52,163 nt of DNA from an uncultured Bacilli bacterium (GCA_947628375.1 CANQZQ010000001.1:1-52163); one strand, 5' to 3'. Positions 2,131 to 38,213 are shown, counted from the stretch's first letter. Made by a program: numbers and translations. Notes: generated by a model from the sequence alone, not told the origin.

Positions 2131-3102
2131 TCCATTGGCATTGACAGATGAAAAGTATGACGCACTACTATTTGTGTAATAATATGGTTGAGTATAACAC
2201 TCAGTATAATATCGTCCAGTATAATATGTTGCTGTTCCTTGACATCATCTTACATTCGTAACATTAGTAAAAGTACTTGCATTCATATTTATTGTTCCAA
2301 CTTTTGTATACATACTGCTAGAAACAAGTCAATAAGTAGAAGCTATATATCGACTTATAATTTGCTGAGTAGAAAAAGTTTGATAACTATGAGTCTCCAT
2401 TATGCTTGGTAGCGTAACTCCTTTGTTATTAGTTGTCCAGGGTTTTAAAGATGTATAAAATCAATTTTGAGTTCAATCTGAACCAGAATAACTTGTTGCA
2501 TAAGTTCAATAGTTTGCTCTTCATCCGCTATATCCATAAGTATTTATACTAGATAAATAACCTGCATAACCATATGTGCTACCTCTAGAACTATATCCGC
2601 TATAACCGTAGGTGTTTCTTGAACTTAATCTACCGCTATATCCAGTTGTTCTAGTTATCCTAGCTGTTGTACTTCTATAACCGCTACCAGTGGTTTGCCT
2701 AGAGGTAGTTCTTCCGCTATATCCAGTTGTTGATTGAGTGCTTCTTCTACCTGAATATCCGCTAGTACTATATCTCGTTAATCTACCAGTATATCCAGAA
2801 GTACTAGCTCTAGAACGAATTCCACTATAACCGCTTGTACTTCTTCTACTAGCAGCTCCGCTATATCCAGTAGTTACAGTTACAGTAGTTTGATTACCTA
2901 CAACAGTTGTATAACTTTGCATAGGTCTATATGCAACGTCACCTATTTTAACTTTTAATTGAACTCCAGTTGTCGTAGCACTCGTTAAATCAAGAAATGA
3001 CCGGCTCCCCCCCCCGATATTCAAGAAATGAGGTGCCATATGTGTCGTATCACATTCATATTGTCTAGATTCTAAACCATTTTTAACTATTATATAATCC
3101 AT
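1441..3102 (-). CDS. Ser/Thr/Tyr/Gly-rich repeat protein, 553 aa (fibre-associated, function unknown)
   Basis: Fragments 1858..2130 and 2521..3102 are in frame. I checked every in-frame triplet from 1441 to 2520 and found only TGA, no TAA or TAG. GAGGTG lies 5 nt before ATG 3100-3102; TAA at 1441-1443. Confidence 0.75.
2524..2875 (-). repeat. short degenerate (S/T)TSGYSGR-type peptide repeats
   Basis: Track translation: TTGYSGAASRRSTSGYSGIRSRASTSGYTGRLTRYSTSGYSGRRSTQSTTGYSGR... Confidence 0.8.
3007..3015. repeat. C9/G9 homopolymer (codons GGG GGG GGG, residues about 30-32 of the 553-aa protein)
   Basis: Read directly: ggctcccccccccgat. Translated as NIGGGSRS in the track. Confidence 0.9.
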
Positions 3103-3104
3103 AT

Positions 3105-4070
3105 TTACACCTCTGTTGTTGCACTTACACTAGAACCACTTGATGATGTTTTAGTAAGTGCTGTTGTTGAACTTAAATTACCAGGAACACTTGATGTTGT
3201 ACTATATTGACTACTGCGTGTTAATGCTGTTGTACTACTTAATATAGCATTCGTTGTGGTTGATGTCGAATATCTTGTAGTTGATTTAGTTAATGCAGTT
3301 GTTGATACTAATAAACTATTAGTTCTAGTTGATGATGAATACCCTCCTGTTGTTGATGATGTTCTACTACTTGTTAAAGTAAAATTAGAAGAAGGTAAAT
3401 AAGTATAAGAAGTAGTTTGATTATTAATTGTTCATGTAGATAATTCTGATGTAGTAAAAGTGTTTATTATATTGTAACTTCTAGTTTCAGATTCACTAAC
3501 CGATCAATGTAATAGTCCTTGGCCACTTCTAAATGTTGTTATAGTGTTACTACCAGTACGATAAGTTAAAGAAGTAACATGAGTATGAACAGTACTACTA
3601 TATACACTACGTGATGTTTCTGATGTAAATTGAGAATCATAAATATAAATTGCACTAAGAGTAGATGATCGAGATCCTCTATAATAAGTTTGAGTTATTC
3701 TACTTGATTGAGTGCTAGTAGCATATCCACTATATCTAGTCATCGATTTTGTTGTTCTTCCACTATAACCTGTAGTAGATATTGTTGATCTTCTACCACT
3801 ATATCCACTTGTACTACTTCTACTAGTTACGCCTGAATATCCAGTAGTACTAGTTACAGTTACTCTATCATCATAACTAGTTGTTGTACTTTGTAATGGT
3901 CTATAAACAATATCATTAATTTTTATTTTTAATTCTTGATTATTAGTATTTGTTGTTAAATCTAAATAATTTGTTGAATTAACTTGCATATAAGGAGTAT
4001 TATTATAAGTAGACTTACATTGATATTTTTTACTATCTACTATTAAATAATTATTTACACAATCATTCAT
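3105..4070 (-). CDS. paralog of the S/T/Y/G-rich repeat protein, 321 aa
   Basis: Track ORF 3504..4070 continues through TGA codons to TAA 3105-3107 (all in-frame triplets checked). The N-terminal domain (Y.C....LDLT......LK.KI.D..YRP.QS) and the C-terminal STTALT units are shared with 1441..3102. This copy has no poly-G tract. Confidence 0.7.
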
Positions 4071-4081
4071 AGTAATACCTC

Positions 4082-5353
4082 CTATTCTTCAGTTTCAATT
4101 CAAATATTTAAATTACTTGTATCACTCGGATTAACAGGAATTATTCCTTGTTGAGATTTAACTAATGCGGCAACTGCTTTACTAGTAGGCATATTTTCAC
4201 TTGCACTATCAATAGCTACAGTTGTATCTACAGCTTTAGCACATGCAGCTGCTAATTTATATCCATTATAAGTTTTATTTGATAAAGCTTGTGTACTATC
4301 TAAATCTACTAAATTTAATGCAGTAAAATCAGCAGTAATAACAGCTTCCGCATTTGTTACGTGACCTTCGCCATTAGTAGTAATTTTATAAATCCCGCTA
4401 TCAAAAGCTTGACCTTTATTAGTAACAGCATGTTTGTATGCGGCAGCACCTCGGTCTCCACGGTAAGCATTCTCGGCACCTTCGCCTAAAACCAAACCTC
4501 CGCCAGTTAATGCTACATATTTTTCTCCATCCCAACGATATTCAATGTTTGTAGATCTATCTACATAGATAACATTTCTATCTCCTTCAGATGGAAATAA
4601 ATCAAAGCTATCATAACCTTGAACGTTAGCTAATCCACCAGGTATTCTTTCTAATGGAATTAAACCTTGTTCATCTAATTCAGCGACTCCGCTATTTGCG
4701 CCAACTAAGTCCGCATTTAATTTTTTACCAAGAGCCGCATTAACAGCACCAGATGTAATTAGCGCATTACTTGATGCAGTTCCGCCTTCAGTAGTATCAA
4801 TAGCTCTTGTAGTTACAGCGCTTGCGCCATTACCAATTAGTACTTGTCCAGCTGTTAATGTTGCAACACCAGTTCCACCATTACCAACACCAATAACGCC
4901 ATTTATATCTTCAGGTTCTACATTAGCTTTATAAGCCATTGCATCTAAACCAGTAATTTTTACTTCTGCTTCATTTCCATTTGTATTTACTTTAATAGTA
5001 CCATTATTAGTGCCTGCGGCAACCGCTCTAACGCCCGCATTTCTAAAGTCAGTGCCGACTAAAGCGACACCCGCGCTTGCAGTATATTTAGTATCATTAT
5101 CTGGAATAGTGATAACAGTATCTCCAGAGTCGTCAGAAGGACTTATTGTAACTTTATGTCCATCTTCGACATCTTGAGTAAAAGTATAAGAAACATTAGA
5201 TCCATCCATCTCAATTCTTTGGCTATCAGAAATATCTAAATATAACTTTTTAGTGTCTGTAGTAAATATAATTTGACCTTCTGCAATAGCTAATTGACCA
5301 AGTTGTTCTCCTAATATTTTATAAAAACTTACAGGCTTTTTAGTTTCATCCAT
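4082..5353 (-). CDS. tail fibre protein, 423 aa
   Basis: Track ORF 4100..5353 reads through one TGA to TAG 4082-4084. Gly/Ala/Thr-rich central region (GVGNGGTGVATLTAGQVLIGNGASAVTT) is typical of Gram-positive phage fibres. Confidence 0.7.
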
Positions 5354-5357
5354 AAGT

Positions 5358-5789
5358 CTATTCCTCCTCTTCTTCTACTTCTCAAGTAATTTCTTCATTA
5401 TCTTGTAAACTGCTTATTCCACTTAAACTTAAAATACCTTCAATCGCTTTTTTACCTTGCATTACTATACTTGAACAAACTACTCCAAGTACACCAACAC
5501 TTGATAGAGTATTTAATAAGTCATTAGATAATAATACTACTCCAAAAGTATCAGTTATTATTTCATTTATATAAGGTAACATTGTAAAAGCAACACTAAG
5601 TGCAGCCGCACTAATATAAAATACTATTACTTTTAAAATACCTTTAAACATTTTTTTAATATTAAAATTTTCTTTGTTACTTCATACATTAACTAATGTA
5701 CCAGTTACAATATTAACTAAGGCTAAAATTCCTAAAATAATACCTAACCAGCCCATAATAGACAATGTTGATAAAATTGCTTCTTTCAT
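5358..5789 (-). CDS. holin, 143 aa
   Basis: ATG 5787-5789 follows GGAGG. The ORF runs through TGA at 5682 and 5382 to TAG 5358-5360. It has several hydrophobic helices and an acidic tail (WEVEEEEE), and lies directly downstream of the endolysin. Confidence 0.7.
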
Positions 5790-5800
5790 ATTTTAACCTC

Positions 5801-6811
5801 CTATTGTTTTTCAAGAGCCTCTGCTTTATAAAAACCAGTTGTCCCAGTATTATTTCCAACTTGATAAGGGTACGCTCTACCATTCCAAATTTTTAATATT
5901 TGTCTCTTCCAACCAATACCATAAGCAGTATTAGATGTACCATAACTTGATCCATTACCAGTTCCAATAATTTTAACCTTATCTCCTACTTTAAGCGCGG
6001 GAGCCGGTGCTGGTTGCACTGGTTGAGGTTCTGGTTCTACTGGAGTAGGTTCAGGAATCGGTTGAACGGGTTCCGCATTTCCGCTTTCAATAGCTTGTTG
6101 TACATCATCTGGTAAATAAATAAATGCTCTAAATGTATAAGCGCTAGCAAGTCCTCATCTACCATTTGTATTTTTTCTAGTTTGATTTCAAAAAGCTTTT
6201 GACCCATATCCGCTTTCAGAAGTGTAAATAGATCCATCATCGTTTACTTTTTCAACTATCCAAACGTGGCCGGCGCCATCTTTTCCGCTAAGTGTAGCAC
6301 CTTTTTGCGCACATCCAATAGCTCCAACTCTAGGTTCGCTACCCGTTTGAAGGCCGGCCGCAACTGCTTTCTCAATAAAATTTTCAGCATTGCAGCATAA
6401 TTTTGTATAAGTACATTTAGAAGTTCCACGAATATTATTAATAATTTCGTTAAATCTTCCACTAGCATACCCAACGCAGTTAGCTAATACATTACAATCT
6501 TTATCTTGCGGATATCCTTTAACACAAGTATTTCATCCACCTGCGCCAGTTGTAATAAAGTTCTTATTTCCGCTTACAGGTTTACTTGTTCTAGGGTAAA
6601 ATTTGCTATTATTTACAATTGCACTACTGATTTTTACAATTTGATCTTCGCCATCTTCATTTAATTCTTCTATTGTATCTGTATTAAATGTGTATTGAAT
6701 GTCATCATTGTTAATATCAGGTCTTAAAAATGCTTTAGCAATCATTGCTTGCATTTCCGCAGGCGCTTGTTCTATACGAGAAATAATCTCTTCAATCGTT
6801 AATTGTTCCAT
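5801..6811 (-). CDS. endolysin: N-terminal domain of unknown function, CHAP-type peptidase/amidase, Pro-rich linker, SH3b-like wall-binding domain (336 aa)
   Basis: Fragments 5801..6019 and 6533..6811 share a frame. My translation of the gap gives NCVGYASGRFNEI (Cys nucleophile) and GHVWIVEKV (His motif), then PIPEPTPVEPEPQPVQPAPAP. Confidence 0.85.
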
Positions 6812-6826
6812 AATATACCCGCCTTT

Positions 6827-7093
6827 CTATTCTACTGATTTCCAATAGATATTATTTCATTTTGAAATATCATCTTCTGTAATGTCTTTTACATATTGAG
6901 GTACTGTTGGATCATCTTCTGTAGTAAGGGCAGTATCTTGTAGTTCTTGTATATCTGATTTTACATTTGTCATTGTGTTTTCTAGCGTTTCTCCATCTTC
7001 CATATCAATATTAACAGCATTTGCGCCAATATCTATATAATCTGAAAAATCGCCATCAGGATTTTTTGCTCTCAATTTTTTAACCTTACTCAT
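6827..7093 (-). CDS. hypothetical structural protein, 88 aa
   Basis: Track ORF 6857..7093 extends through TGA to TAG 6827-6829. Confidence 0.55.
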
Positions 7094-7107
7094 GATATAA
7101 ATCCTCC

Positions 7108-7156
7108 TTTACAGAAAAATTAAAGAAGAGAATAATTTATTTTAAACATTCTCTTC
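7108..7156 (-). terminator. intrinsic terminator
   Basis: 9-bp stem gaagagaat/attctcttc (7125-7156), followed on the minus strand by a T-rich run. Confidence 0.5.
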
Positions 7157-7200
7157 TAAATTTTTATATCTATTCATATTTTAATTTATCTAAAAAATAA

Positions 7201-7377
7201 TTATTCTGCTTCGTCCTTAACTTCTTCTTTTGTTTCTTGCTTTTGTTCTTCTTTTAATAAATTATTATATAAATCACTAACTTCTCTAAATACATCTTTT
7301 AAAACATAAAATTTTGCTTCAAAAGGTAAATTTGCAGAATTTATTAATCCTGCTAATTGTTTTCTTAATTCTTCCAT
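7201..7377 (-). CDS. hypothetical small protein, 58 aa (MEELRKQLAGLINSANLPFE...)
   Basis: Not in the track (below its size cutoff). ATG 7375-7377, TAA 7201-7203, frame checked. Confidence 0.5.
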   Translation of the reverse strand: MEELRKQLAGLINSANLPFEAKFYVLKDVFREVSDLYNNLLKEEQKQETKEEVKDEAE

Positions 7378-7394
7378 ATCCTTTTATCTCCTTA

Positions 7395-10300
7395 TTATTC
7401 TGAAACTGAAAAACCTGTACAAAATCCCTTTTTAAAAGTTATACTAATAGTCTGTTCTACATCGAGTCCTGCAGTTCCTTGTTTATTCGCTTTAAACGTA
7501 AATGTTCCATCTTTTACTTTTGTACTGTTAACTGTAATATCTCCTACGTTAAAAATTACTCCATGGCCTTCTCCAGAGCCACTTGCATTAATAGTCACAT
7601 CACCGCTATCTCTAACCATGACTAAACCGGTAGTACCGCTACCTGACTGTAAACAAGCTCCTAAACCACCATTACTTCTAACCACCATTGCAGATCTACT
7701 AGACTCATAAGATATACCTCCTCGATAATCAGAAGTGCTCCCTCCATCTATATCAATAGTACTATAAAGACCAATACCGTTTTCTGCATCGATATTGAAT
7801 CCGCTTGATCTAGGATGAGCTGTGCCACCACCGCAAGCAAAGAAATTGTTTCCATTTTTTCATCTTATTCTATTATTAGAACTGTCAATAGTAAAATATG
7901 TACTAGATAATGTTGTTGAACTTAAATTTCAGCCACCTATTCTGCCACTTTTAGCATACACGTAACCATTGTTTTGAACATAAAATACTCCATCGCCGAC
8001 CTCAATATTTCTATGTGTATTTCCAGATCCAGACCTTAAATGGACATTCCCATCGACTGAATGCAATTCAGTTTCTTCAATAACTCAGCCACCTATTTGA
8101 CCACTTTGAGAAGTTATATTACCATTAATTGTTAATGTTGTTCCATCTCATTTAAGCTTGTCACCAAAAGATACTGTTCCATCATTATGAATATGTCATC
8201 CAGCTCCAGTATTGCAATCTAAATCTCCATTAGAACTTAATATTACATTTTGACCTGTAGAAGTTAAATTATTTTCATTAATATTCCATCCACCGATAGT
8301 TCCTTTTTTCGCAGTTAAACTACCATCAGCATTTAATGATACTTCTCCATTAGTTAAAGAACCATTCGTAATTTGCCAATTTCCAATATTTCCTGCGGTA
8401 AATGTTGCAGTTCCATCTTGGTTTATTGACCATATTCCATCTTTATGTTGAATACTACCATTTGCATTTAAGTATATATTTCCGCTATGAATATTATTAG
8501 GTTCAATTATTCAACCACCGACATCTCCAGTTGTAAATGTAGCTGAGCCATCTTGATTAATAGACCAAGTACCATCTACATGTTGGATACTCCCGTCAGC
8601 GTTTAAATAAATATTTCCGCTATGTAAACTATTTGGCTCAATAATTCATCCGCCAATGTTACCTAATGTAAAGCTTACAGAACCATCATTGTGAATAAAT
8701 CATTTATTTTCGCCATCAATATTACATTCAATATCTCCAGTTGCTTTCATTACTATATTTTCAGTACTAATATTATCATCATTAATACTTCATCCGCCAA
8801 TAGTTCCAGCTCTTGTATTTAATATACCTTCATTAGTAACTTCAAATTTACTATGACCTTGTTCATTTAAACCACCAAGCGCAAATCCGTCAGTTCCAAT
8901 ATAGAAACCATTTCCATCTGCATCAAAAGTAGGTTTATCAAAAGTATGAATGACACTATTTACGCCATTTCCGCCAATATAAATTAAATTATTAGTGCTT
9001 CCTGCACCAATTGTTGCTTCTGTTGTTCTTAAATAACCATCATGTGTAACATAGAAATTGCGGTCGCCGGCTCAAAATGCGAGAGCCTTGATCTCATGTT
9101 GCGTTGGAGCTGGAAGAGGCACATCTTCAGTAGTAACCCCAGCATCTATAACATTCTCGACTGAGCTCATACCGGTCCAGTCTTTATAAATCTTATAGTC
9201 ATCGATTTTTCATCCTGCGATCTCGCCGCCGCCGCGCATATAAGTAAATCCATTTGGTTCTACTCTAAAATTACCATTACCAAATAATATTCTTGGTGTA
9301 GTTAAATCAATAAGCATTCCGCTATTGATATCTTGCATGTCGCCAGTGGTTTGATTAGCTTGACCATCGTATTTATGAGTTCTATCATTATAACTATAAT
9401 TAGTTCTAGGTAATCCATTTCTAGTAGGATCGGTTGTATCATCAATATAGTTAGCTCAGAAATTATTGCTATAAATCATAGCATTATTATTTGTTGGATC
9501 TAAAATAATTTGACCTGGTCCATTTTTACCAAAAATACCATAGCCATTATAAGCACTTAAATATAATGTTCTTTGTCCTTTATGATATCCCAACAAACCA
9601 ACATCTTTTTGTGATTGATTAGCCTCTTTAACAGCTCCCATTCACATACCAGTAAAGCTATTATCTTTTTCTTTAATACCTGCTCCAACCTTTGGCGCTA
9701 GTAAGTATCCACCATTTGAGTCTAATTCTACACTATTTCCATTTCAATTGTTTAATTCTGCTTGACCATATCTATTAAGCATAAAATGAATTGGAATATG
9801 AATTCTACCAACTGAGCTTCCGCTTCTAGTCATTGTACATTCAAGAGCTATGTTTAAACATTCTCCATCATAATTATTAACAGGTATAAAATACTTTTCA
9901 TTTCTATCTGTTGTTTTATTCCCGCTATCTTCAATAAGATATTGTTCTTGAGTTCAAGAACCAGTAACTCCATTATAAATTCTTCCATATTGTTTTCAAG
10001 AGTAAGTAATAGCTTCAGATTTTTCCATTTTACTTACATTTTCTTGATAACCATTAATAGTTCTTTCAACTATTATTTCAAAAGGTTCTGAATTGCTATA
10101 ACTTGGATAGCGGCCGTCCGCGCTATAAGTAGCAAACCTAAATCCAGTATTTTCTTTTAATCCAGCCCTATATCCGCTACTCATTGTGGCAGTAATTAAT
10201 GGCATTGTTGCATAATAATAAACACCATTTAAGCTTACTGTACATTGAATTATATTAGCAGGAGAATTACCTGAATAACTTTTATAACTAAATGTTCCAT

Positions 10301-12680
10301 CGCTTGTTACTGAAATATCATGAGTATCATGTTTATTACCTAATATTGTTCAAGTTAATACAGCTGTTTTATTATTTTCTGTTGTTGGTCCTGAAGCATA
10401 ATTGTCAAAAATTTTATCTCCATTATGCCAAATTTCAACTTTAAACCATTTTCCAGATTGTCTAGGTGTAAAGTTAGGGCTACCATTTAATATCATTGGA
10501 TATACATTTGAATTCCAATTTCCGCTAATATTAGGAACAATTTTCGCAATATATTCAGTTCCATTAGTTCCAGGTTCGCCATCTTTTACAAAAGTAAAAT
10601 TAGTAAATGCAGTTAATATTATATTATTTTTATATTCAATTTGTAATTTAATATTGTTATTAGTATAATCAACATTATATATATCTGCAATATTATAATT
10701 AAAGTCAGTTAAATTAGTATAAGTTGCAGTTCCATTTGTTTCATCTTCTTCGGATGGCACATATCCATCTGGAATAATTAACATAGTATTTTTATTAGGA
10801 ACTATTCATTTAATAGGACATTTTGCTAATGCGTCTTTATTAATAGGTCTCCCTAAATTATCATAAACTGTGAATGTTAAATTTGTAGGAGCCATTGATC
10901 TATCTGGCCACATATTATTAATAGGTGAGTTTCCATCTGCTGTATAACTAAATGTTTTTGTTCCATTATTAATAACTAAAGTATAAGCGTCTTCCATATT
11001 TAATGTATTTCTAATAACAATAGAAGCACTTCCTATATAAACTCCATTATTATAAACAGAACATTTATAAGTAGAAAAATTAATAATTGTATTTACTTGT
11101 ATTTTTCATAGATGCATTCTCTCTACTCTCATTAATTTATCATATTTTTCCATTATTGTCAAATAAGAGTTCAATTGTGCTTGAGATGCGGCGGGCATCG
11201 CTGTTTCCGCTTCGATTCTCGCTTGGAGATTCTTATAAGCGGTTGCCGCATTATTATATTCATTATTTTCAGCAGGAGTTTCCGCTAAACTGCTAAAAAT
11301 ATTATTGCTGTCTATTTCTGCCCATAAATAAGTAAAATTAGCACCAGATTGGATTTGGTTATTTACTCTACAAGTTAAACTAGGAGTTCCGCCATCAAAA
11401 TAAAATTCAGTTCCGCTATCAGACTCTATAGTAATATCCCATTGAGAGTCATAATTAGTAATAGTAATTTCTTTTGATAAAGTAATATCATCATAAACAG
11501 CTACACATTTATATCTGGTCTCTTTAGCTTGAGAATCTTTTTTAGAGACGGTATATTCTCAACCAGCTGGCACTCATTCATAAATAGGTCTATTGTCTCT
11601 ATCTACGCCAACTTGATTTCTTTCATTCTTACATTGCCAGCCTTGTCCGCCATAGCTGCAATAATCTTCGCTAGATGGAATTACACCAACATTTTCTACA
11701 AATCAATAATATTTTACAGATTGAGAATTATTATCTATATTTTTTCCTTTAATTCTTACTTGCGCTCTTAATAATCTTGTATCACTATCTTTGCTATTTT
11801 CATCAAAATAAGTTCCTTGAGGTGTAATAAATACTAAACCATAAGAACTTAATTCAGCTTCGCTAGTAGGGATTGCGCCATAAAATTCTATATCTTTTAT
11901 AAAAACATCATCTGGGTGTCCACTCTCTTGTTTAGGGAATTTTTCAATAAATAAATAAATTTTATCAATATATTGAAAATTATCAGTATCGATATTAAAT
12001 ATTCCGTATTGTCTAGTTCAATTAACTTGTTGATATGGGTCACCAATCATTTGGTTAACATCAATTTTATATCTTCTTATAACAGTATCGCCAGTATTAT
12101 TATCTCAAAAAGCTAGTTCAAATACTATACCAAAATTTCCTCTAAATTGTTGTTCTTTAGGCAATTTAGTTTGAAAATTTCCTCCGCAAATAATAGATGA
12201 TGATTTTTTTATATAAGTTTCTACACTTTTTAAATTCAAACGTACATCATTGTTAGAAGTGTTTCTGTCATAAATAGTTTTAGTTTCATCTTTATAAGAA
12301 CAAAAGCTATATTGATTATTAGAGTCAATGCAATTAGTACCAACTCTTTCATATAAGTCTTCTTCTTCTGTTACATTACCAGCATAATTAACACCTAATT
12401 TTTTAGTTGTGCCTAATATCTGTTTATCTCTTGTCATGTCATTCGCTGGAACTAATACGTATACTTCCGCACCTTTCATGTAAGTAACATCTGAACTTCC
12501 AGAATATGCAATAAATGAGCTATCTTGATATTTTACTTTATATTTTCCAATAGTTGGATCAATACATTCAATAATTTGACATTGAATAGTTTTATCATAT
12601 CCAGCTCTTTGAACCGCATCTGTAGCTATCTCTTCAATAGCATCAAGTATTTTATCTTCATAATTTGAATTTGTTGCCAT
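7395..12680 (-). CDS. giant distal-tail / receptor-binding structural protein, 1761 aa
   Basis: Six track fragments (7395.., 9456.., 9996.., 10350.., 10806.., 12105..12680) are all in one frame. I checked every in-frame triplet between them and found about 24 TGA, no TAA or TAG. Contains G-x-I-G-G-W-x-I modules repeated about every 50 aa. Confidence 0.85.
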
Positions 12681-12749
12681 ATTCTTTCATCTCCTTTTTC
12701 TCCTCTAAAGAAATATCAATTTTTTCATTTTCTCTTTACATATATTTAC

Positions 12750-25817: not shown

Positions 25818-25818
25818 A

Positions 25819-28332: not shown

Positions 28333-28352
28333 AATTACACCTCCAAACTTTA

Positions 28353-28937: not shown

Positions 28938-28959
28938 AATTAATTCTCCTTTTTCTCAT

Positions 28960-29020
28960 AAATAAAAAATAGGGAAGGAAAAACGACTCCTTTATTTCAA
29001 GAATTTGTTTTACCTTCCCT
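28960..29020 (-). terminator. intrinsic terminator after the capsid gene
   Basis: 14-bp stem agggaaggaaaaac/gttttaccttccct, followed by a T run on the minus strand. Confidence 0.6.
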
Positions 29021-29044
29021 AAAATATATGTGATATGTTTATAA

Positions 29045-30070
29045 TTATTTAACTTCTTTAGTTAAAGTTTCGTTTTTATAAACACAAATGTTATTAGTGA
29101 TTAAAGCACCAACACCAAGTTTTCTATATACTTGGATTTCTCTTGACCAGTCATCATTTTTTCTGTCATCAACAAGTGTTTGACCTTCAAATGCGATTTT
29201 AACTGGTTTGTCAGCTCCTGTAGGGATAATCCATGCATAAGCTGGGTCAATAACTTTCATGCTATTAGTTTCATCAGTTAATGATTGATTTAATACTACT
29301 ACATCATGTCCTTTGTAGTTTGCTAAATAACCATTATTCCATCTAGCTTCTTTCATATCATTTGAATACCAACTAGCATCAGATGGCATCATAGTTGCGG
29401 CAAATTCAAATGTACAATAGATAGTACTTCTTCCATAAGAGTCTGCAATTGATAATAATTTATCCATTTCAGTTTCTTTGAATGAAGTATCAGTATGTTT
29501 ATTAACTGTTGATAATTCGTTAGCAGCAGCGATTAATGCAGTTTCAATTTCTTTATAGATAGCTTCGTCTAATCCTTCCATTACGATGTCAACTAATTCA
29601 TTGAAGTCTAATCTTCCATCTAAGAATTCTTCGATAGAGATTTGAGCAGCTCCTCCGAATGCAGTTACTGGTAATTCATAGCTTTTTCCATCTAATTTGA
29701 ATACTTCATATACACCAGCTAAACCAGCTTTAGTAATAAATTGTTTTGCTCTTCTTCTTGAAGCAGCAGTGATTTTTTGTCTGAAAATAGCTTTGTCACC
29801 TTGAGCAACAGTAGTAATTTCAGCAAATCTTCCGTATTCTTCAATAACTCTTTGAGGTAATACATCATCAACAACTTGTTCTACTAATGCGAAAATAGTA
29901 TGTTTATTTTGTTCATATAAATGATAGTTACCTGCAATAGCGTTTAATTCTTTTCTTAATGTTTCATTAATTTCTGAAGCAGTAAATGTTTCACCTTCAA
30001 AAGAATAAGTAGCAGAAGGTTTTACATTAACAGCTAATTTAGCTAATTTTGTTAAATCTTTAAGTTCCAT
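29045..30070 (-). CDS. major capsid protein, 341 aa
   Basis: Size, position after the scaffold gene, strong RBS and a downstream terminator. HK97-fold membership is inferred, not searched. Confidence 0.8.
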   Translation of the reverse strand: MELKDLTKLAKLAVNVKPSATYSFEGETFTASEINETLRKELNAIAGNYHLYEQNKHTIFALVEQVVDDVLPQRVIEEYGRFAEITTVAQGDKAIFRQKITAASRRRAKQFITKAGLAGVYEVFKLDGKSYELPVTAFGGAAQISIEEFLDGRLDFNELVDIVMEGLDEAIYKEIETALIAAANELSTVNKHTDTSFKETEMDKLLSIADSYGRSTIYCTFEFAATMMPSDASWYSNDMKEARWNNGYLANYKGHDVVVLNQSLTDETNSMKVIDPAYAWIIPTGADKPVKIAFEGQTLVDDRKNDDWSREIQVYRKLGVGALITNNICVYKNETLTKEVK

Positions 30071-30083
30071 ATTAAAGTCCTCC

Positions 30084-30608
30084 TTATTTTATTCTTTGAA
30101 TTTTTACACCTTGTTGTCCATCAGGCATAGTGTAAATTTTAACTACTTTCCATTCCATACCTTCATATGTTCCATCTGTAGTTAAATATCCATCAGTGTT
30201 GACTTTTAAAACTGTTTCTCCTTCAGTTAAGTCTTCACTTGTTACTTCTTTATTTTTATCAGTGTTTGCTATAAAGCAATTAGTTGTGAATATATCTCCA
30301 ACATTTGTTTTGAATAATCTTGGATAAATTTCTCCAGCAACATAATCTTCTTTTTTCATAGCGAAATCTTTGTATGAATCTCTTTCATCATAGCATTTAA
30401 CTTCGTTATAAACTAACATTGGTTCCATTCCGTCAGCTGTAGGTTTTACAACTTTCTTTTGAGCATAGTCATAAACCATGAATTGACCATTTTCAAGAAT
30501 ATTAATTCCTTCATCTAATGGTAATTGAGCATAGATTTGTCTATTTCCTTGAGCTGATAAATGATTTGGTTCAACTTGTCCAAAACCAATTCTTTTAATT
30601 GTAGCCAT
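30084..30608 (-). CDS. hypothetical head protein (decoration?), 174 aa
   Basis: Intact ORF between the scaffold and capsid genes. Confidence 0.5.
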   Translation of the reverse strand: MATIKRIGFGQVEPNHLSAQGNRQIYAQLPLDEGINILENGQFMVYDYAQKKVVKPTADGMEPMLVYNEVKCYDERDSYKDFAMKKEDYVAGEIYPRLFKTNVGDIFTTNCFIANTDKNKEVTSEDLTEGETVLKVNTDGYLTTDGTYEGMEWKVVKIYTMPDGQQGVKIQRIK

Positions 30609-30630
30609 ATCTATTTTTCCTCCTTATATA

Positions 30631-31998
30631 TTATTCTCTATTGTTGTCTCTAGTATGTTTTAATGCAGTTAACCATGCTGGAGAACTAACAGAGTCGTTA
30701 TCTAAACTATATGTTGTGATAACTTCTTTATCTTCTACATTATCTTCATTTTTTGAATTATCCTCTAAATCAAAATTAACCTTTTTTCTAACACAAATTA
30801 CAGATAATTTTGCTTCTATTTCTTCTAGAGAATATTTTGATTTATTTTCGATAACGTCTTTTTTATCTTCATCAGATAACATATAGAAACTATTGATTAA
30901 AGCGTCTTTCTTTTCGTTATCTACAGCTTCTTTAAATGTTACTAATTCTTGATATTTAGCTTCCATTTCTGCATAACTAGTCTTTAAAGCTTCTAATTCA
31001 TTTTCTAATAAAGCATAATCTTTTTTCTTTTCATCATCATCGTCATTATCTGCGTTGTCAGTGTCATCAGATTTATCTTCATTTTCATCTTTTTTAGCAG
31101 CATATTCTTCTTGACTAGGTTCAGCAGCATCATCAACAGAAGCATTAGATTCGTCTGCGATTTCCGCAGGTTCTTCAGTTATAGAATTTTCTTCTGTAAC
31201 TTCAGGAGTTTCAGTTTCAACTGGTTCAGTTTCAACAACTTCTTCTTCAGAAGATGTGATAACTTCAGTTTCAACATTTTTATCTTCTAGTTCCATTTTG
31301 TATCCTCCTTTTAACGCAACTTGTAGGTCTTTCATCATAGTAAACAATGTTTGTTTAAAGCTATCATCCATTTTAGTAAAGGTTTTACTTACTTCAGGTG
31401 CGGTAATGCTTGAGCCTTCGAAGCAAGGTTCAACATTTTCTCCTAAAATGCATAATTTTGTAAATATTGCATCATTTATTATGAAAAATTCCATACCTGT
31501 TTTATTGTTTGTTGACCAATGTCCATCTAAAGTTTCTTCATCTAGTTCCATTGATTGAGGTCTTCCCCCAAGAGCTAGTTTAGCTTCTTCAAATTGACCC
31601 GTTCAAAGATACCCAGTAGTCATAAGATATTCTCTTGTAACTTTGTTTCCAAAATCATCAGTATCTTCAAATTTTTGAAACCATACTTTGGCATCTGGAG
31701 CTACGAATCCATAAGGTTTAGTTAGGCATTCAAATTTAATGCCATCTTCATCCATTATGACTCTTTCACTGTGTTCTCTAAAATCGCCTTTGTCTTCATT
31801 ATAATATCCAACAATAGGCGCCCCTCTTAAAGTCTTTGCCATTTCTGTTGCAACTTCTTTAGTAATATAACTATGGTTTCTATTTTCACCTAGATATAAA
31901 ACTTTTATTTCACAGCTGCTCATTAGTGGGTTAATTTCTAAAGGTTGTAGATTAATAAACTCAGGAGAGTCTATAGTTGCTATTGATTGGTGCATCAT
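30631..31998 (-). CDS. prohead protease/scaffolding fusion-type protein, 455 aa
   Basis: Fragments 30631..31551 and 31603..31998 are in frame and joined by one TGA. Has an N-terminal globular domain and a very acidic coiled-coil C-terminal half. Confidence 0.6.
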
Positions 31999-32082
31999 AA
32001 CTATCTATTCCTTTCTTAATTTCCACTTATTTATATTTAAATAAAGTGCTAATAATTTTTTCTTTTTTTGTCCTAATTTTCA

Positions 32083-33711
32083 TTAAGATTGACTTTCTTC
32101 ATTCATTATTGTTTTTTCAGATTTCTCATCGTCTGCTTTTTTAGGTCTTCCGCCAGTACTTTCTTCACTATCATTATTACTATTGCTATTTTGTTTATTT
32201 GCGCTATTTAATCTATTTAATACATCGCTATTCATTGTACTTGACATCATTGGTGGAATAAATACATTAACTAAATCTAATACTTGATTTTCAAAATAAG
32301 CATTTGCTAATATTGTACTTTGAGATTGACCAAGAGCAATTTGCGGAAGCATCTTACTAAAACCAACTTGCATTTGTTCTTTATAGATTTTCGCCAAATC
32401 TTGATAATTATAAATAGTTGTTTTAAGGATTTGCGCTCTATAATAATATTTTTTAGGTTTTTTATTATATTTTTCTATAACATCATTCATAAATGCTTCA
32501 AATTGAAGTATTAAATCATACATTGATGCGGCATCATTAAGAATAGATTTTTCAAGAGCAATGTTTCCGTCTGTATTAAATTGCATTTGAGAAACACCAG
32601 CTTCATTATAAACTGTTCTTTCTACTCTTGCTAAATCATCTGTTGTAGCAGTACTTCTATTGCTATCCATATCCGCAACATCAACATCCGCGAAAGTAGT
32701 TAACACATCTATACCAATAGCCTTACCTAACATTGCAACAGCATTATTATGTAATTGTTGAGCTTCATCTACATCGAATACAAGATCTCCATTTTTATCA
32801 GTTGGCATTTTTTGAATAATAATTTTTAATAATTCTTGTGCCATCTTTTGTTTATCTAAATCTTGAGCTTCATCTAAATCTATAATTGCGGGAATGACTG
32901 ACATAAACATTGGCGAATCTTCTCCATTAATGTTAAATTTAATGGTTGCCGCAGTGTCTAACAAATATCATCCTGCTGAGTCTCCTGGAAATTGAGGAGG
33001 TAATTTCCCATCTTTATAAAGAATATATCCTTTTTTAAATTCTGGTGGGAAAAGATTTAGCATCTTCATTCTTTGTGTTGCGTCTTTAAACATTGCATCA
33101 AAGTATCTCATATTAAATTCAAGTGCTGGTCTATTATTAACAATAAATCTTGAACGACAATAATTTACAGGTAATTCTTGAACAGTAATTCTTTTAGAAG
33201 TAGGAATTAAATATCCATAATAACAGCCATTTTTAATAACTTTTAATGCTATCTCGCCAAATAATTTTTTTAATTCAGAATTATCTAAATATAATAAAAT
33301 CTTATAAAAATCTGCTAGCGCATCATCTTGATCTTTTTCTTTTGTAGTATCTTCATTTATATAAGGAGTTACCATTCAATCAAATGTATACATACGAGCC
33401 ATATATTTGCATAATCTTGAATAAATACCACTTGTTTCAAAATAAAATCTAGATATTTCTCGCATATCTTCATAATTATTATCCGCAAGTGCTCTCAATA
33501 TTATTTCCTTTTTTGTAAATCTAGGTTCTACTTTACTATAATCTCCTAAATTTAAAATAGCATTATCTAATGTTTTTGCTCCAACTTTTATTTTACTAAA
33601 ATCTACAGGAACAAAGTTATTTGATAAATTATTTTCAATGGTGTCATCATTAAAGTTCATTTTAAAACCTTTTCTTTTAATTTCTTCTTTTCTATTTTTC
33701 AAGATTGACAC
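32083..33711 (-). CDS. portal protein, about 542 aa
   Basis: Fragments 32083.., 32968.. and 33376..33711 are in frame and joined by TGA. Lies next to the terminase. The start is GTG 33709-33711 or ATG 33658-33660. Confidence 0.8.
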
Positions 33712-33736
33712 CTCACTTTTTCTATTTTAGTATATA

Positions 33737-34105
33737 TTAAAATCCGCCTTTAGAATAATATAAATTCATAATATAGTCATAATCTATTCTACCTTCCGCA
33801 ACATACGGAATTTCAATTAAAATTATATTATGTTTTTTGCAGTATTCTTTTTTCTTCATATCATTAAATTGTTGTTTGTGAAGTCCAGAATATCCACCGA
33901 ATTTGCTTTTTGGTTCATAATGTTGAATACCTTGATATTCAATCAAAAATTCTAAATTATGATCATCATCAAAAACAGCAAAATCAAATCTTAAAGGGCG
34001 GCCGCTTGAACTCACTAAATCAGGAAAAGAATATTCTTCTTCAAATATTAATCCAGCTTCTTGCAAAACTTCTTCTATTTTTATTTCTCCTCTACTTGCC
34101 CTCAT
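33737..34105 (-). CDS. PD-(D/E)XK-type nuclease (free-standing, homing-endonuclease-like), 122 aa
   Basis: Motifs FDFAV...LEFLIEYQGIQH...K match a D...E-x-(Q/D)G..H restriction-endonuclease-like core. Inserted between the terminase and portal genes. Confidence 0.55.
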   Translation of the reverse strand: MRASRGEIKIEEVLQEAGLIFEEEYSFPDLVSSSGRPLRFDFAVFDDDHNLEFLIEYQGIQHYEPKSKFGGYSGLHKQQFNDMKKKEYCKKHNIILIEIPYVAEGRIDYDYIMNLYYSKGGF

Positions 34106-34195
34106 ATTTTCCTCCTGTAATATACTAAAATGTTTCTATAATAATATAAATCTTTCAAAAAGTAAATAACTTAAAGTTGCCCAATAAAGCAATTA

Positions 34196-35944
34196 TTAAT
34201 TTCCGCTAAAGAACATCATATCTGCAATATTTCTTTTTTTTCTTTTTTTCTTTTTATCTTCTTCTAATTTTTTATAATACATTCCATGTTCAAAAGCAGA
34301 GAATTTATCTTTCTTAATGCTCCTATTAGATTGTTTTAATATAATATTAACGCCTTCATTTTCTTCTACTAAATTAAGCATTTGATCTTTTAAAATAGTA
34401 GTTTGTGTAAATGGTATTAAATATTCTGCTCTCTTGTCTGGCGTCATATTTTGTCCAACCTTTGTAGATAATAATTTAGTTTTTGCTTGATTTTCATCAA
34501 TTAAAAATTTAATTTTCCCACTTGATAATTGAGTTTGAACATAAGTATGCATCTCAGTATTAATAGGCGCATTAGCTTTAATTAAATAAAGAGCATCATT
34601 TTCAACACCTGGACCTTTAATTTTTTTATATTTTTCCAAAGTATCTTCTGCGGTACCACCTTCTACACCAAATGGCGGCAACTCTTCTCCAGTATCTGGA
34701 TCTATTTGCGCTAAAATCATAAAATCTATTAATCCAGCACCTACACCATTTGCATCGATTGATAATGCTCTTGCATTATATTTATAATATAATTTCTTTA
34801 AATGAATTGCTTGTTTTTCAAAATCTTCTGCGTCATAAGTGTAAATATTAACAAGAGCAGCTAAATCAGCTCCTTGCACTTGCGGCGTAACCTTAATTAC
34901 CGCAACCTCAGTCATATCTCCAAAACGACCTACGTCGACACCCAATATATAATATTGACTTTTACCATTTCTTCCACTTGCTTCATACTCTGGTTGCAAT
35001 AGTACTCTATATTTATCATATTTTTCAGATGAGAAGAATGCATTTTCCGCATCACCACTTCATTCAGACTCGTATTCTCTTGAAAATGAACTATCATTAT
35101 AGGTTCCATCTAATTTTAAACCTTGAATAAAGTTTTTTGGTTGCAATCCTTCAAGCACTGGAATTCGTCATGTTCCGCCTAAAACCATGGCTTCCGCAGG
35201 ATTTATAATTTGTTGGATTAATAATTGAATTAATTTATCATAAGCAAATGCGTTTTTCCATCCTGCCGTAGTTACATAAATTTGAGATTTATTAGCAACT
35301 TCATCTTCTCTACTGCTTCCATCAGCTAATCTTCTATCTACTACCATTGTAGGAATAATAACTTCATTCAATAGCGTTTGGTCAATAAGAATAACCTCTT
35401 CCATTAAACCACCTGTTGCACGTTTACCACGAGAACTTTGTTGTGCAGCCATGATATCTAACTTGCTACCATTTTTAAATATATAAGTAACTTCATTTTT
35501 TGAAGCTTTTGAAGCTCCTCTTGACCAATCTATTTCATTTCTTAATCCAGGAATTAATTTAACTAATTCTTCTGCTTTTTCACGAGTAATTCCTGCAGCT
35601 TGCTCTTTCCCACCAGTAGTAACAAAGAAATGCGCTCTAGGATATAAAATGCAACGCAACATTAATACTAACACAGCTAAGAATGATTTTGAATAACCAC
35701 GCGGAAATGTTGCATATACATATTTATGACGCATTGCCGCCCTTAAAAATATCCTTTGATAAAAATATAATTGGAAATTTTCAGGATTATTTCCACATAA
35801 AAATTCAACAAACATATCTGGATATTCTCTTCAAAAGGCAACATACTGTCTAATAACAGGTAATTGCGCGCGAATTCTTTCTTCAGAAATCCCAATTTTA
35901 TTCATCTTTGAAGAAGATAATTCTAATAAATCTGCTAAAGCCAT
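34196..35944 (-). CDS. terL: terminase large subunit, 582 aa
   Basis: Fragments 34196..34999 and 35168..35815 plus an N-terminal extension to ATG 35942-35944 are all in frame through TGA. Walker A-like FPRGYSKS, Walker B-like GGLMEEV, and a nuclease half with ILGVDVG. Confidence 0.9.
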
Positions 35945-35945
35945 A

Positions 35946-37127
35946 TTACACATCCTCTTCCTCTGATGCTAATTCGTCCTCGTTTATTGCCTTTTGAGCT
36001 TCGATTTCCGCATAATACTCTTCAAAATCATTGTCCGCAAGTTCAATATTTTGATCAAAGCTTTCTTCCATTTCTTTTTGAATTTGAATTTTTTTAATAG
36101 CATCTTCAATTTGTTGACCAAAACCTAAGTCTTGAGTTACTAATTTTTGAACATAATCATTCATATCTTTTAAAGTGGCATCAACTTTATCTTGTGGTAC
36201 ATCTACTACATATCTAGGAATAAAGCCATCTCTTTCACACATAGTAATTAATTCACCAACAGAATCAACAAATTCATCTTTATTTTCTTTATTCTGTGCA
36301 GCAGTAAATTTTGCGGATTTTCTTAAATCGTTATATATTTTTGAATATTTTTGAAATCCCTCTATATCACCGCAATCAATAGCTTGGTTCATTTTTAAAT
36401 ATGTTTTACAAATTGTTATTAAAGTATTATCAGTATCTGCATCTTGAATATCGAAAGATTTTTTCATAGAGTCATAATTTTTTTCTAACTCTACTCATTC
36501 AGATGGCTTATAAAATCTTCCTCATTTCATAGCAAGATAGATTTTTTCATCATCTGTTAAATCTTCACCTAAATCTATTAATAGAGATTCGTCAATGAAA
36601 TCATCTGGATTTCCAAAAGGATTTTCCGCAGCTGAAGTTACTGCGGGAACCGCATAAACTAAATTTTTATTTTGTGTCTCTGTGCTAACTAATGTCTTAT
36701 ATTCAGCTTCAGAAATCTCCCCATTATCTAGCTGTTGTTTTAAATGTTCTTCGTATTTTTCACGCTCTGCCGCAACTGCTTTTTGTTTTTCTTCATTTAA
36801 CGCTTGTAGCTTTTCTGAGTCTGCTCATGTATATTGTTTCCATTGTTTTAACTTCATTTTAGATAAATATTTACCAAAAACAGATGTTCCATTTAAATTT
36901 GGATTTTTTGCAAAAGCTCTATCTCTTAAAACATTCCATTCTTCAGGAATATAAGGGACATCCATATCTTTTAATATTCATAAAAAAGTTTCTGGGTTAA
37001 AATTATCAATATGCATTGTTAGACATTTTTTACATAAATCTGCTTTAGATCCATCTCTTCTTTGATAGAATTGAGCATCTTCATCAAGCGCGCGTCCGCA
37101 TTTTAAGCATGTTTTTAAATTGCCCAT
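35946..37127 (-). CDS. Zn-ribbon protein upstream of terL, candidate small terminase/packaging accessory protein, 393 aa
   Basis: Track ORF 35946..36467 extends upstream through five TGA codons to ATG 37125-37127 (frame checked). N-terminal CLKCG...CKKC motif and an acidic C-terminus. Confidence 0.45.
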
Positions 37128-37133
37128 ATTATA

Positions 37134-38213
37134 TTACCTCTCTTTTTTATTTCTACATGCTTTGCATATAGAATATCAACCATCTTTTGATGTATTATTT
37201 TTTGAGAAGAACCGATTATGAGCTAATTTAACTTGTCCGCACCTAGAACATTTTTTCCATTTCCCATATTCTTTATAAGTATAATATCATATTAAATAAT
37301 TTTCTTTAGCCTTGTCCGCAATCATTTTTGGAATTTTATTACGCCACAATGAAGATAAATATTCCACAGTATAAGTAATATTAAATTCATCTTTTAATAA
37401 TTGTTGGATTTCCGCATTTGACTTTCCATCTATTTTATAAATTACTAATTTATAATATAGTGGATAATTTTCTTTTAGAGTGTCATCTACAAGATCGTCT
37501 AAATCTTCCATAAGGTATCAAAAATCTCAAGTAAATTTTCCTCAGCAATCTTCTTTTAAAGCAGAATAATTACAAAGTAATGCGCAAATATGTTCTGGAT
37601 TAAAAAATGATACTAAACAATCACTAGCTGGTTCTCCATTTTCATCGATTGTAATATTTTCATCTAATTTAGTTTTTGTTAAATTTTTTACACTTGCCGC
37701 ACTAGGCATTGCAGGTTTGTACGAATCTTTTATTACGTATTGCTCTTGATGCATTTCTATTAATCATTTTTTAAGTTTAAATCTTTGTTTGCCTGTTGCC
37801 GCCTTTTCCGCCTCTTCTACTATTTGAATTGCTTCTTTTAAATCTTTTAATGCTTTTATTTCTTCTATGTCTCTATTTGTTATTTCTTTCTTTTGTGTTA
37901 ATAATGTATTTTTATTTCCTTCTTCTAATATTAAATTTCATAAGCCATCTTCGCCATTTTCAAATTTATCTACTAAAGCTTGATAAGATGTTTCTCTTTT
38001 ATTTACTGTAATCATTCTATTGTCAGTAAGAATTAATTTTTCTTTCTTTTCTTCTGGAGTCATTGCGGAAACTATATAATCAGCTAATATTTCTATATAT
38101 TTTTTACTTTTTAATTGTTCTTTGGTTAAAGTCGGTAAAAGCTCGTTCACAAAAGCTTCACGCTCTTCCGCACTTTTTAAAGAATAATCTAGCTTTTTGT
38201 AGTTAGTTTCCAT
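37134..38213 (-). CDS. first gene of the late operon: candidate sigma-like/late transcription regulator with a C-terminal Zn ribbon, 359 aa
   Basis: Fragments 37287.., 37542.. and 37938..38213 are in frame through TGA, ending at TAA 37134-37136. The segment KIDGKSNAEIQQLLKDEFNITYTVEYLSSLWRNKIPKMI resembles a sigma region-4 HTH. CSRCG...CKAC at the C-terminus. Confidence 0.4.

Follow-up and report, generated by a model that had tools for sequence, protein, structure and literature searches.

An apparently polar GCGGAA signal in a TGA-recoded phage contig reflects non-polar enrichment of GCGG/CCGC

Introduction

The stretch of DNA analyzed here (hereafter, the window: 52,163 nucleotides, GCA_947628375.1, CANQZQ010000001.1:1-52163), assigned to an uncultured Bacilli bacterium, carries the hexamer GCGGAA dozens of times along one arm and almost always on the same strand. 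A sequence-only reading of this DNA had taken the pattern for a strand-polar signal, possibly Chi-like sites that would protect phage DNA from a host exonuclease, with an RNA signal in late transcripts or a replication or packaging polarity signal as alternatives. The locus thus raises the question of whether the polarity is itself a selected property and, if it is not, what the word represents. We find that GCGGAA looks polar because a non-polar over-representation of GCGG and CCGC, whose best extended form is (T)GCGGA(A), is being read from the coding strand, and that the same core recurs in an interrupted palindrome, GCGG-N3-CCGC. To the reading that combines a non-polar, clade-specific GCGG/CCGC excess with a selected DNA recognition word we assign, taken as a whole, a probability of roughly 0.6.

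The window is a whole contig (C1) of a genome bin that comprises 122 contigs and 1.30 Mb. It represents part of a phage genome of about 135 kb in which TGA is read as tryptophan and whose late arm lies on the minus strand. For comparison we used its close relatives, defined by a terminase at least 75% identical, a G+C content of 27-30%, and TGA recoding; among them is a complete genome, G002 (135,791 bp, with 127-bp terminal repeats and 25 tRNAs including tRNA-Trp(UCA)). The coordinates of all features are collected in Table 1.

Results

Raw counts in the late arm

Exact counting bore out the numbers of the sequence-only reading, which had reported about 42 copies of TTCCGC against three of GCGGAA on the plus strand between 2.7 and 38.2 kb. 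There are 45 against 4, the latter at 14635, 32343, 35701, and 38065 (range counted, 2700-38200), of which 32343 had been overlooked. Likewise, CCGCT and AGCGG, put at about 45 and 2-3 plus-strand copies, occur 44 and 2 times, and the five plus-strand GCGGAA positions listed to the right of about 38-47 kb were correct to within a few bases (this side carries copies at 44366, 45260, 46206, 46899, 48009, 49178, 49316, 50853, and 52069). Base composition does predict only a few copies per strand, as had been supposed (4.2 under an order-0 and 4.7 under an order-1 Markov model). Under these two models GCGGAA is the top hexamer of all on the coding strand of the late arm, with a z-score (z) of 18-20, which falls to 7.3 under an order-2 model and to 0.2 under the maximal-order model. 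As the hexamer is accounted for by its pentamers, the core must be shorter than six bases. Among the shorter words, GCGGA is present 75 times (6 expected) and GCGG 124 times (44 expected).

Both of the reading frames described earlier are used (Table 1), and CGG is in frame at none of the copies. Of the codons involved, GCG, AGC, and GGC (15% of Ala, 13% of Ser, and 13% of Gly codons, respectively) are rare, as had been described, whereas GAA and GGA are the commonest Glu and Gly codons. The 45 copies are spaced as at random (coefficient of variation 0.91; random range 0.74-1.27), which rules out a regular spacing. Frameshifting or quadruplet decoding at CGGA was also rejected: long open reading frames (ORFs) run through every copy unbroken, and CGG never stands in frame.

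Enrichment in both orientations under a synonymous-codon null

Our null model shuffles synonymous codons within each gene, thereby keeping the proteins and the per-gene codon usage (1000 shuffles). In the late genes, the 45 sense copies of GCGGAA compare with 15.0 +- 3.6 under this null (range over runs, 15.0-15.9) and a maximum of 26 in 1000 shuffles, corresponding to a z of about 8. The enrichment thus did not vanish under the codon-shuffled check that the sequence-only reading had proposed, and an artefact of codon usage or amino-acid composition is ruled out as its sole cause. Since the shuffle yields 15.0 copies, amino acids and codon usage explain some two thirds of the 11-fold raw excess, whereas the three-fold remainder is real at the nucleic-acid level.

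The opposite orientation behaves differently from what a polar signal would lead one to expect. TTCCGC occurs four times on the coding strand, where the null predicts 0.4; in fold terms the reverse orientation is therefore more enriched than the forward one, and enrichment on both strands was the very outcome that had been set beforehand as speaking against the earlier claim. The skew is fully predicted by the null (15.7 against 0.4), and this null skew of about 40:1 exceeds the 11:1 observed. Accordingly, the claim of selection at the nucleic-acid level stands as far as the excess is concerned, which survives the shuffle, appears in two phases, and extends to intergenic DNA; it does not stand for strand polarity as a selected property. 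The ratio of 45 to 4 arises because the late proteins, rich in Ala, Gly, Glu, and Ser and encoded on one strand, offer about 40 times more opportunities in sense.

An unbiased scan of words against the null returned CCGC (48 against 11), CCGCA (31 against 4.2), and GCCGC (26 against 5) alongside GCGGA (78 against 32), TGCGG (49 against 21), and GCGG (127 against 74). When the ranking was symmetrised, such that a word and its reverse complement both had to be enriched on the coding strand, TGCGG/CCGCA (z 6.0/13.0) and GCGGA/TCCGC (8.1/4.0) came out on top, accompanied by TGCGGA/TCCGCA (6.3/6.8) and GCGGAA/TTCCGC (7.2/5.4). The GCGG:CCGC ratio is 2.6:1, below the 6.6:1 of the null, and the skew hence reflects the codon pairs that the proteins allow.

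Orientation follows gene direction

Nor do the data support a polarity of the genome. The early arm (Table 1) carries GCGGAA at 1.2 copies per kb, the density of the late arm, in almost equal numbers on the two strands and in orientations unrelated to gene direction; GCGG and CCGC stand at 46:45. Its 4.8 kb of intergenic DNA hold 10 copies against 0.7 expected, and its ORFs hold one sense copy (2.0 expected) and five antisense copies (0.9 expected). In G002, 37 copies lie on the plus and 41 on the minus strand, and the orientation flips with the gene blocks (sense:antisense 31:9 in plus-strand and 23:4 in minus-strand genes).

A block-wise analysis was made of six genomes, namely the window and five relatives that are nearly complete, in which codons were shuffled gene by gene over about 0.6 Mb of coding sequence. 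In the long-gene blocks of the six genomes, GCGGAA is found 288 times in sense (106 expected, 2.7x) and 75 times in antisense (10.5 expected, 7.1x), and the same holds for GCGG (973 against 494) and CCGC (595 against 147). Blocks that run with the late operon and blocks that run against it give like results.

These data bear directly on a replication or packaging polarity signal of the type of FtsK-orienting polar sequences (KOPS) or other skewed oligomers, oriented from origin to terminus. The domains of G002, plus at 30-95 kb and minus elsewhere, would suit a circular replicon, and early blocks that run in the direction of the late operon carry mostly antisense copies (5:2 in the window at 47-52 kb; 7:1 in G002 at 0-20 kb). 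However, wherever the cumulative GCGGA skew turns in the six genomes, gene direction switches within a distance of about 2-6 kb, a sense excess persists in genes that point against the surrounding +-8 kb (6 against 2.3; antisense, 4 against 0.8), and the pentamer is not reversed in the early block of G001. Moreover, the reverse orientation is enriched everywhere, which is unexpected of a polar signal, and we consider this explanation very unlikely.

An interrupted palindrome with a fixed spacing

The GCGG core also occurs in the interrupted palindrome GCGG-N3-CCGC (N, any base), which is present 11 times in the window against 0.32 expected and 8 times in G002; the mirror pattern CCGC-N3-GCGG is at background. 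Against the synonymous null, the late genes of the window hold 9 copies (0.23 expected, z about 17) and the coding sequence of G002 holds 8 (0.23 expected). At N3-4 spacing, no other of the 256 possible four-base inverted repeats is enriched, and stems of equal opportunity, such as GCCG/CGGC, are never used. There are 5-16 copies per genome in the clade and 0-4 in distant relatives; phAss-1, which is the nearest named phage, though distant and TAG-recoded (PMC10607447), has one, whereas Enterococcus phage VRE9_3, S. aureus phage K, and the bin (1.24 Mb) have none. The reversed-pattern control is at about zero in all genomes counted.

Most coding copies read GCG-Gnn-nCC-GCn, which encodes Ala-X-Ala/Ser/Thr/Pro-Ala. 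We considered whether two half-site rules acting on Ala-rich peptides could yield the palindrome as a by-product, and a spacing control rules this out: of 29 permissive peptide positions, 14 carry the full site at N3, against 0 of 29 when the halves lie one codon further apart (N6; p = 1.5e-5). The spacing-specific palindrome is therefore a unit in itself.

Alignments show how such sites appear. At the newly arisen copy in Table 1, the relatives read K-D-K-L-E-E-M-T-L and the window K-D-A-V-A-A-A-S-L, and at the N4 form they have AAT GAT GGA AGA, in both cases without insertion or deletion. Palindromes are thus gained by patches of 5-10 nucleotide changes, amino-acid replacements included. The same 11-12-mers recur in unrelated genes: GCGGCAACCGC seven times, GCGGCAACC ten times, and GCGGACGGCCGC twice, and an unrelated gene contains an identical copy of the 12-mer GCGGCCGTCCGC at 10110-10121. 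The sites are not functional elements fixed by common descent, as only one of nine full sites is common with G002, namely GCGGCCTCCGC, which stands at the orthologous place there as GCG GAA GCC GCA. In the literature, the 11-mer turned up only in incidental occurrences such as primers.

Clade distribution and codon context

All close relatives carry the signature (GCGGAA about 3x, CCGCA 5-10x), and the more distant ones mostly lack an excess of GCGGAA. It is nearly absent from phAss-1 (1.2x), and GCGG is at expectation in phage K (8 against 7.7) and in the standard-code phage VRE9_3 (18 against 17), so that the signature is not common to low-GC phages in general. The top k-mers of the bin's ORFs (858 kb) include no GCGG word, which argues against mimicry of a host signature, a comparison that is valid only if the bin is the host.

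Within genes, the excess is a matter of codon context. GCG makes up 22-33% of Ala codons before S (G or C) and 5-8% before W (A or T); by next codon, its share is 28% before GAN, 26% before GTN, and only 9% before GGN. GCC reaches 28% before GCN, GGC 35% before GGN, and AGC 37% before GGN, and after NGC glycine is written GGA 43 times and GGT 10 times (elsewhere, 304:302). In orthologues with conserved dipeptides, GCG is retained in 52% of cases before S and in 6% before W, other rare codons in 10-28%. Set against the low persistence of whole sites given below, this high retention of context indicates a constraint on context, not on fixed sites.

At the tetramer level, ACGG (0.52x), GCGT (0.65x), and ACGT (0.72x) fall below the null and GCGG (1.7x), CCGC (4.3x), and GCGC (2.0x) exceed it, strand-symmetrically. 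Among all-G/C tetramers only GCGG, CCGC, GGCG, CGCC, GCGC, and GCCG are enriched; CCGG (0.77), GGCC (1.03), GGGG (0.70), and CGGC (1.14) are not, which rules out a general clustering of G and C.

These patterns raise the main rival of a selected word, a context-dependent bias of mutation or repair without function. In an AT-rich genome, CpG flanked by A or T might decay faster or be repaired worse, so that third-position G and C pile up as GCGG, CCGC, and GCGC, and template switching at quasi-palindromes might perfect short GC hairpins. A redistribution of CpG by its flanks, strand-symmetric and with an unchanged total, would be expected of such a bias, as would the contrast in GCG retention between S and W contexts and the turnover of site positions at random spacing; a similar, faint tendency is seen in the bin (TGCGG 1.33x, ACGT 0.49x). 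Against it stand the all-G/C tetramers that are not enriched, the restriction to 1 of 256 stems at N3/N4 only, the 14 of 29 against 0 of 29 in the spacing control, patches of 5-10 changes that replace amino acids, 11-12-mers repeated in unrelated genes, and the lack of the signature in other low-GC Firmicute phages and in the bin. We consider a functionless bias unlikely on this evidence.

Two avoidance effects were tried as sources of the codon choices. Avoidance of internal Shine-Dalgarno sequences helps with NNC before GGA, but as the sole cause it fails for GCG-GAA, for NCC-GCA, and for the intergenic excess. Avoidance of GCWGC does not account for GCC-GCA, as GCT before GC is not depleted. 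Shine-Dalgarno-like words are themselves depleted inside the late genes (GGAGG 12 against 29, AGGA 126 against 174), which implies that the host relies on Shine-Dalgarno pairing; long T and A runs are depleted as well. As a further word below expectation, GATC occurs at about half of the codon-aware null (window, 53 against 85; G002, 94 against 153 and 37 against 83), which suggests avoidance of a GATC-specific restriction system.

Comparison with Chi sites

The Chi words AGCGG of Bacillus subtilis and GAAGCGG of Staphylococcus aureus both contain the GCGG core. Several observations suit the proposal that the copies are Chi-like sites for a host enzyme of the AddAB/RecBCD type, protecting or recombining phage DNA. 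The DNA-level excess of a word with this core is real, the binned bacterium encodes an AddAB-like pair (two neighbouring ORFs on contig C70, of 797 and 1033 aa, both containing PDDEXK_1), the acquisition of new sites resembles Chi selection, and the palindrome would offer GCGG to enzymes arriving from either side. RecA, RecT, Erf, and RecB-family genes were not detected in the five clade genomes, and a lack of recombinase or RecB-type genes is a correlate of Chi-rich lambdoid phages (PMC12315714).

The Chi words themselves are nevertheless not enriched in the window (AGCGG 47 against 35.9 under the shuffle null, z 2.1; GAAGCGG 6 against 5.2; GCGCGTG 0 against 0.1), and AGCGG is equally unremarkable in G002. 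In the Chi-rich phages LLS and MD8, nearly all sites lie in one orientation (20:3 and 32:0) and cluster at the open packaging end (PMC12315714); here, both orientations are enriched, the copies are random and unclustered, and the near-equal strand totals of G002 and of the early arm reveal no single active orientation relative to a DNA end. For entry at the right end of G002, the 40 kb lying there would be in the inactive orientation. The host-genome check that had been proposed gave AGCGG 1.22x, GCGGAA 1.24x, and GAAGCGG 1.29x in the bin's ORFs, figures that bear on the question only if the bin is the host; TGCGGAA (37 against 18.7) is only a weak hint. With no prominent GCGG word and no palindromes in the bin either, we regard Chi sites as a very unlikely explanation, although some GCGG word may conceivably act as Chi in the true host.

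Hairpins, promoters, and the RNA level

Some intergenic copies belong to terminator-like hairpins (Table 1); at 46206, for instance, GCGGAA forms the 5' stem half and the loop. A G+C-rich inverted repeat with a T-run downstream of a gene holds for only a few intergenic copies (46206, 46899, 43266, and 42894), and the 45 late-arm copies sit inside genes, not in terminators. As a general cause in coding regions, hairpins were rejected (GC-rich perfect hairpins 5 against 2.9; 4-bp inverted repeats 499 against 483). A promoter element was rejected, too: GCGG is missing from all 26 promoter-like spacers of the window, although it lies in two of those in G002. The early arm (38298-51912) carries about 22 near-consensus TTGACA-N17-TATAAT promoters, which lie on the same strand as the nearby genes and in many cases have an extended -10 TG.

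An RNA-level signal in late transcripts, such as GC hairpins or pause or processing sites on the mRNA, would fit the dominance of sense copies in the late genes in absolute number and the intergenic copies that form terminator-stem halves, and GCGG-N3-CCGC could fold as a 4-bp triloop hairpin. Yet a 4-bp stem closed by a 3-nt loop has hardly any stability, other G/C stems of the same strength are unused, and coding GC-rich hairpins are scarcely above the null, as given above. It also misfits the antisense copies, which are more enriched than the sense copies and account for the whole excess in early genes. Of the explanations weighed here, an RNA signal is the most improbable.

Genetic code and gene content of the window

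The assignment of the window to a TGA-recoded phage rests on its recoded ORFs, its PHROG and Pfam phage genes, and the genome type of its relatives. ORF maps were drawn under codes 11 and 4, genes were named by PHROG and Pfam matches, and GC and AT skew were computed. One minus-strand frame, from 12,107 to 7,862, contains 24 in-frame TGA but lacks TAA and TAG. If TGA is taken as a sense codon, genes follow one another without a break along the minus strand from 77 to 38,213, two of them with ORFs as long as 1761 and 2760 aa. By skew, the coding strand is plus in 38.3-47 kb and minus again in 47-52 kb. The relatives are viral contigs of 105-198 kb. A Megablast search of deposited phages with the window gave no match, and Rfam and tRNA scans of the window were empty.

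The phage contig differs from the bin in genetic code, as TGA is a stop in the other contigs, and in G+C content (30.7% against about 25%). Zero common sequence or spacers were found between the phage contig and the rest of the bin, and the assignment to this bacterium is one of binning alone.

Several observations touch the recoding itself. G002 (L086) encodes a suppressor tRNA-Trp(UCA) beside a tRNA-Trp(CCA) and, according to ARAGORN, a tRNA-like gene with the four-base anticodon '(gaaa)' (8971-9066 and 693-761). In the window, TGA-encoded Trp is concentrated in the late genes (77-38213; 88 TGA to 57 TGG) and scarce in the early ones (38347-51578; 7 to 29), a distribution that fits the published idea that recoding delays late-gene translation. 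The distant relatives L026-L035 and L043-L049 show a long-ORF coverage of about 20% under the standard code and under TGA=Trp alike, and probably use TAG recoding like phAss-1.

Repeats and homopolymers were also seen. The 10-12-mer (CCG)GCATCTCCGC at 49369, 49747, and 50125 recurs exactly 378 bp apart (window 49366-50135), suggesting that the early arm holds a tandem repeat with a unit of some 378 bp. A C9 tract lies at 3006-3014 (window 2999-3018) near the start of the tail gene 1441-3102 and a C7 tract at 13-19 (window 8-21), and GGGGGG occurs four times in coding sequence (0.3 expected); such long C/G homopolymer tracts are possible slippage sites.

Table 1. Positions of the GCGG-core elements and genes discussed in the text (window coordinates unless another genome is named)
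Feature	Coordinates	Strand	Details
GCGGAA copies, coding strand (45)	2712..38171	-	21 GCG-GAA, 24 xGC-GGA-A
Early arm	38251..52163	.	17 GCGGAA: 9 plus, 8 minus
Early blocks with antisense-only GCGGAA excess	window 47-52 kb; G002 4588-17745; G001 72598-100679; G003 25515-43748
Palindrome GCGGCAACCGC	5016..5026	.	coding strand GCG GTT GCC GCA, A-V-A-A
Copies of the GCGGCAACCGC 11-mer (7 in all)	5016, 12922, 20233, 22768 (intergenic), 26213, 47107; reverse at 11239
Newly arisen palindrome	26213..26223	.	alignments with 11 relatives
N4 form GCGGCCGTCCGC	27306..27317	.	coding strand GCG GAC GGC CGC, A-D-G-R
Palindrome GCGGGAACCGC	36643..36653	.	coding strand GCG GTT CCC GCA; relatives A-Q-P-N/L/V
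Palindrome GCGGCCTCCGC	14047..14057	.	coding strand GCG GAG GCC GCA, A-E-A-A
Intergenic palindrome GCGGAAACCGC	50853..50863	.	
Terminator-like hairpin AGCGG-AAAC-CCGCT, then T8	46200..46225	+	end of gene 45895-46206
Terminator-like hairpin AAGCGGA-A-TCCGCTT, then T-run	46893..46920	+	after gene 46622-46897
Bidirectional terminator-like hairpin AAAAACGCG-(CATTTC)-CGCGTTTTT	43253..43285	.	contains one motif copy
Late/structural gene array, uninterrupted	77..38213	-	TGA as Trp; ORF maps, PHROG/Pfam, skew
Phage sigma factor	37134-38213	-	PHROG/Pfam
Large terminase	34196-35953	-	PHROG/Pfam
Portal	32083-33711	-	PHROG/Pfam
Capsid-region genes, virion proteins	within 77..38213	-	PHROG/Pfam
Tape measure, 2760 aa	12771-21053	-	PHROG/Pfam
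Distal tail protein, 1761 aa	7395-12680	-	PHROG/Pfam
CHAP lysin	5801-6811	-	PHROG/Pfam

Discussion

The element described here is not a Chi array of a single orientation, and it is not an RNA signal either. In coding sequence, the word is made by a context-dependent choice of rare codons, namely GCG if G or C follows, NGC ahead of GGA, and NCC ahead of GCA; the interrupted palindrome is an extreme form of the same preference, newly created in the lineage. Because acquisition is specific to both word and spacing, we infer selection, or a copying drive, for a DNA word that would be read by a factor peculiar to the phage lineage or to its true host. The architecture of 4+4 bp around a free 3-bp spacer suggests a dimeric reader, plausibly a DNA-binding or DNA-processing protein with GCGG-N3-CCGC as its full site and many half-sites.

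Several results weigh against a selected recognition word. The null conditions on codon usage, which may itself have been shaped by the word. Full sites hold only 3 of 66 GCGGAA copies, and most half-sites stand alone: at N3, a partner with at least three of four matching bases accompanies only about 17% of GCGG words. Hexamer and palindrome are thus linked by a common core, of which they are largely separate expressions. At conserved residues, only 39 of 85 whole GCGGAA sites persist, and CpG as a whole matches the null (1.05x) with W-flanked CpG depleted; both, like the random spacing of the copies, also fit a neighbour-dependent mutation bias. Early blocks that run in the direction of the late operon show no sense excess (4 against 3.7) beside a clear antisense one (12 against 1.4), which the model does not account for. 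As for the reader, a search of the five clade genomes found no C5-methyltransferase and no RecB-family nuclease, RecA, RecT, or Erf, which also disposes of a phage C5-cytosine methyltransferase with associated repair as the source of the pattern, and PHROG and Pfam yielded no DNA-binding candidate among the window's proteins.

More specifically, GCGG-N3-CCGC and the half-sites (T)GCGGA(A) might be the sites of an undescribed sequence-reading system of the clade or its host, driven into coding sequence at an amino-acid cost; we offer this tentatively, as a possibility with the odds somewhat against it. Candidates for such a system are a self-marking or protective DNA modification, a protein that coats or organises the genome, and a bidirectional signal of the Chi type. 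Should a protein or modification system read the word, phages would offer a new case of genome organisation or of sequence-specific "self" marking, and the word could serve as a handle for assigning such uncultured phages to hosts or lineages.

The locus also carries a caution: where one strand holds all genes of an arm, a purine-rich word that fits common codon pairs looks polar. A polar Chi-like array would have been the Firmicute-phage counterpart of the Chi-rich lambdoid phages, and the evidence speaks against it. The unusual remainder is that a clade of stop-codon-recoded gut phages accumulates both orientations of a 4-6-bp word as well as a palindrome that depends on its spacing.

Among known systems, the Chi-rich phages that lack a recombination module (the E. 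coli LLS class and P. aeruginosa MD8; PMC12315714, PMC3784561) resemble the present case in that a short word of host type is over-represented inside genes, detectable recombinase and RecB-type genes are missing, and sites have apparently been gained by selection. They differ in having a proven host Chi, nearly all of it in one orientation and clustered at the open end; here, both orientations are enriched with block-wise flips, the known Chi words of Firmicutes show no excess, and there is no signal in the candidate host.

Codon-pair bias, or context-dependent codon bias, and oligonucleotide signatures likewise have a third base that depends on the next codon and a lineage-wide reach. Unlike in codon-pair bias, however, three codon-pair classes, two phases, and intergenic DNA converge here on one double-strand word, which is strand-symmetric, includes a spacing-dependent palindrome, and is absent from the bin and from other low-GC phages. 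Strand symmetry, spacing, and clade restriction thus fit neither a tRNA-level bias nor simple host mimicry.

The uptake signal sequences of Pasteurellaceae and the DNA uptake sequences of Neisseria are 9-12-mers in bacterial chromosomes that are linked to a competence receptor. As in these systems, a short word is driven into coding sequence in both orientations, its sites turn over between relatives, and it imposes peptides at poorly conserved positions (here A-V-A-A, A-E-A-A, and A-D-G-R). The differences are a core of 4-6 bp, a virulent-type phage genome, and the lack of any uptake system involved.

Interrupted palindromes such as CAC-N3-GTG and GAC-N3-GTC are typical of dimeric DNA-binding proteins and of type II restriction-modification sites, which the 4+4 bp with a fixed length of free 3-bp spacer resemble. 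Restriction targets are normally avoided in phages, whereas this word is accumulated, and no methyltransferase of the C5 family was found in the five clade genomes. Lineage-specific over-represented DNA words are a known phenomenon, of which this word, with its spacing-specific palindrome, is best filed as a new variant.

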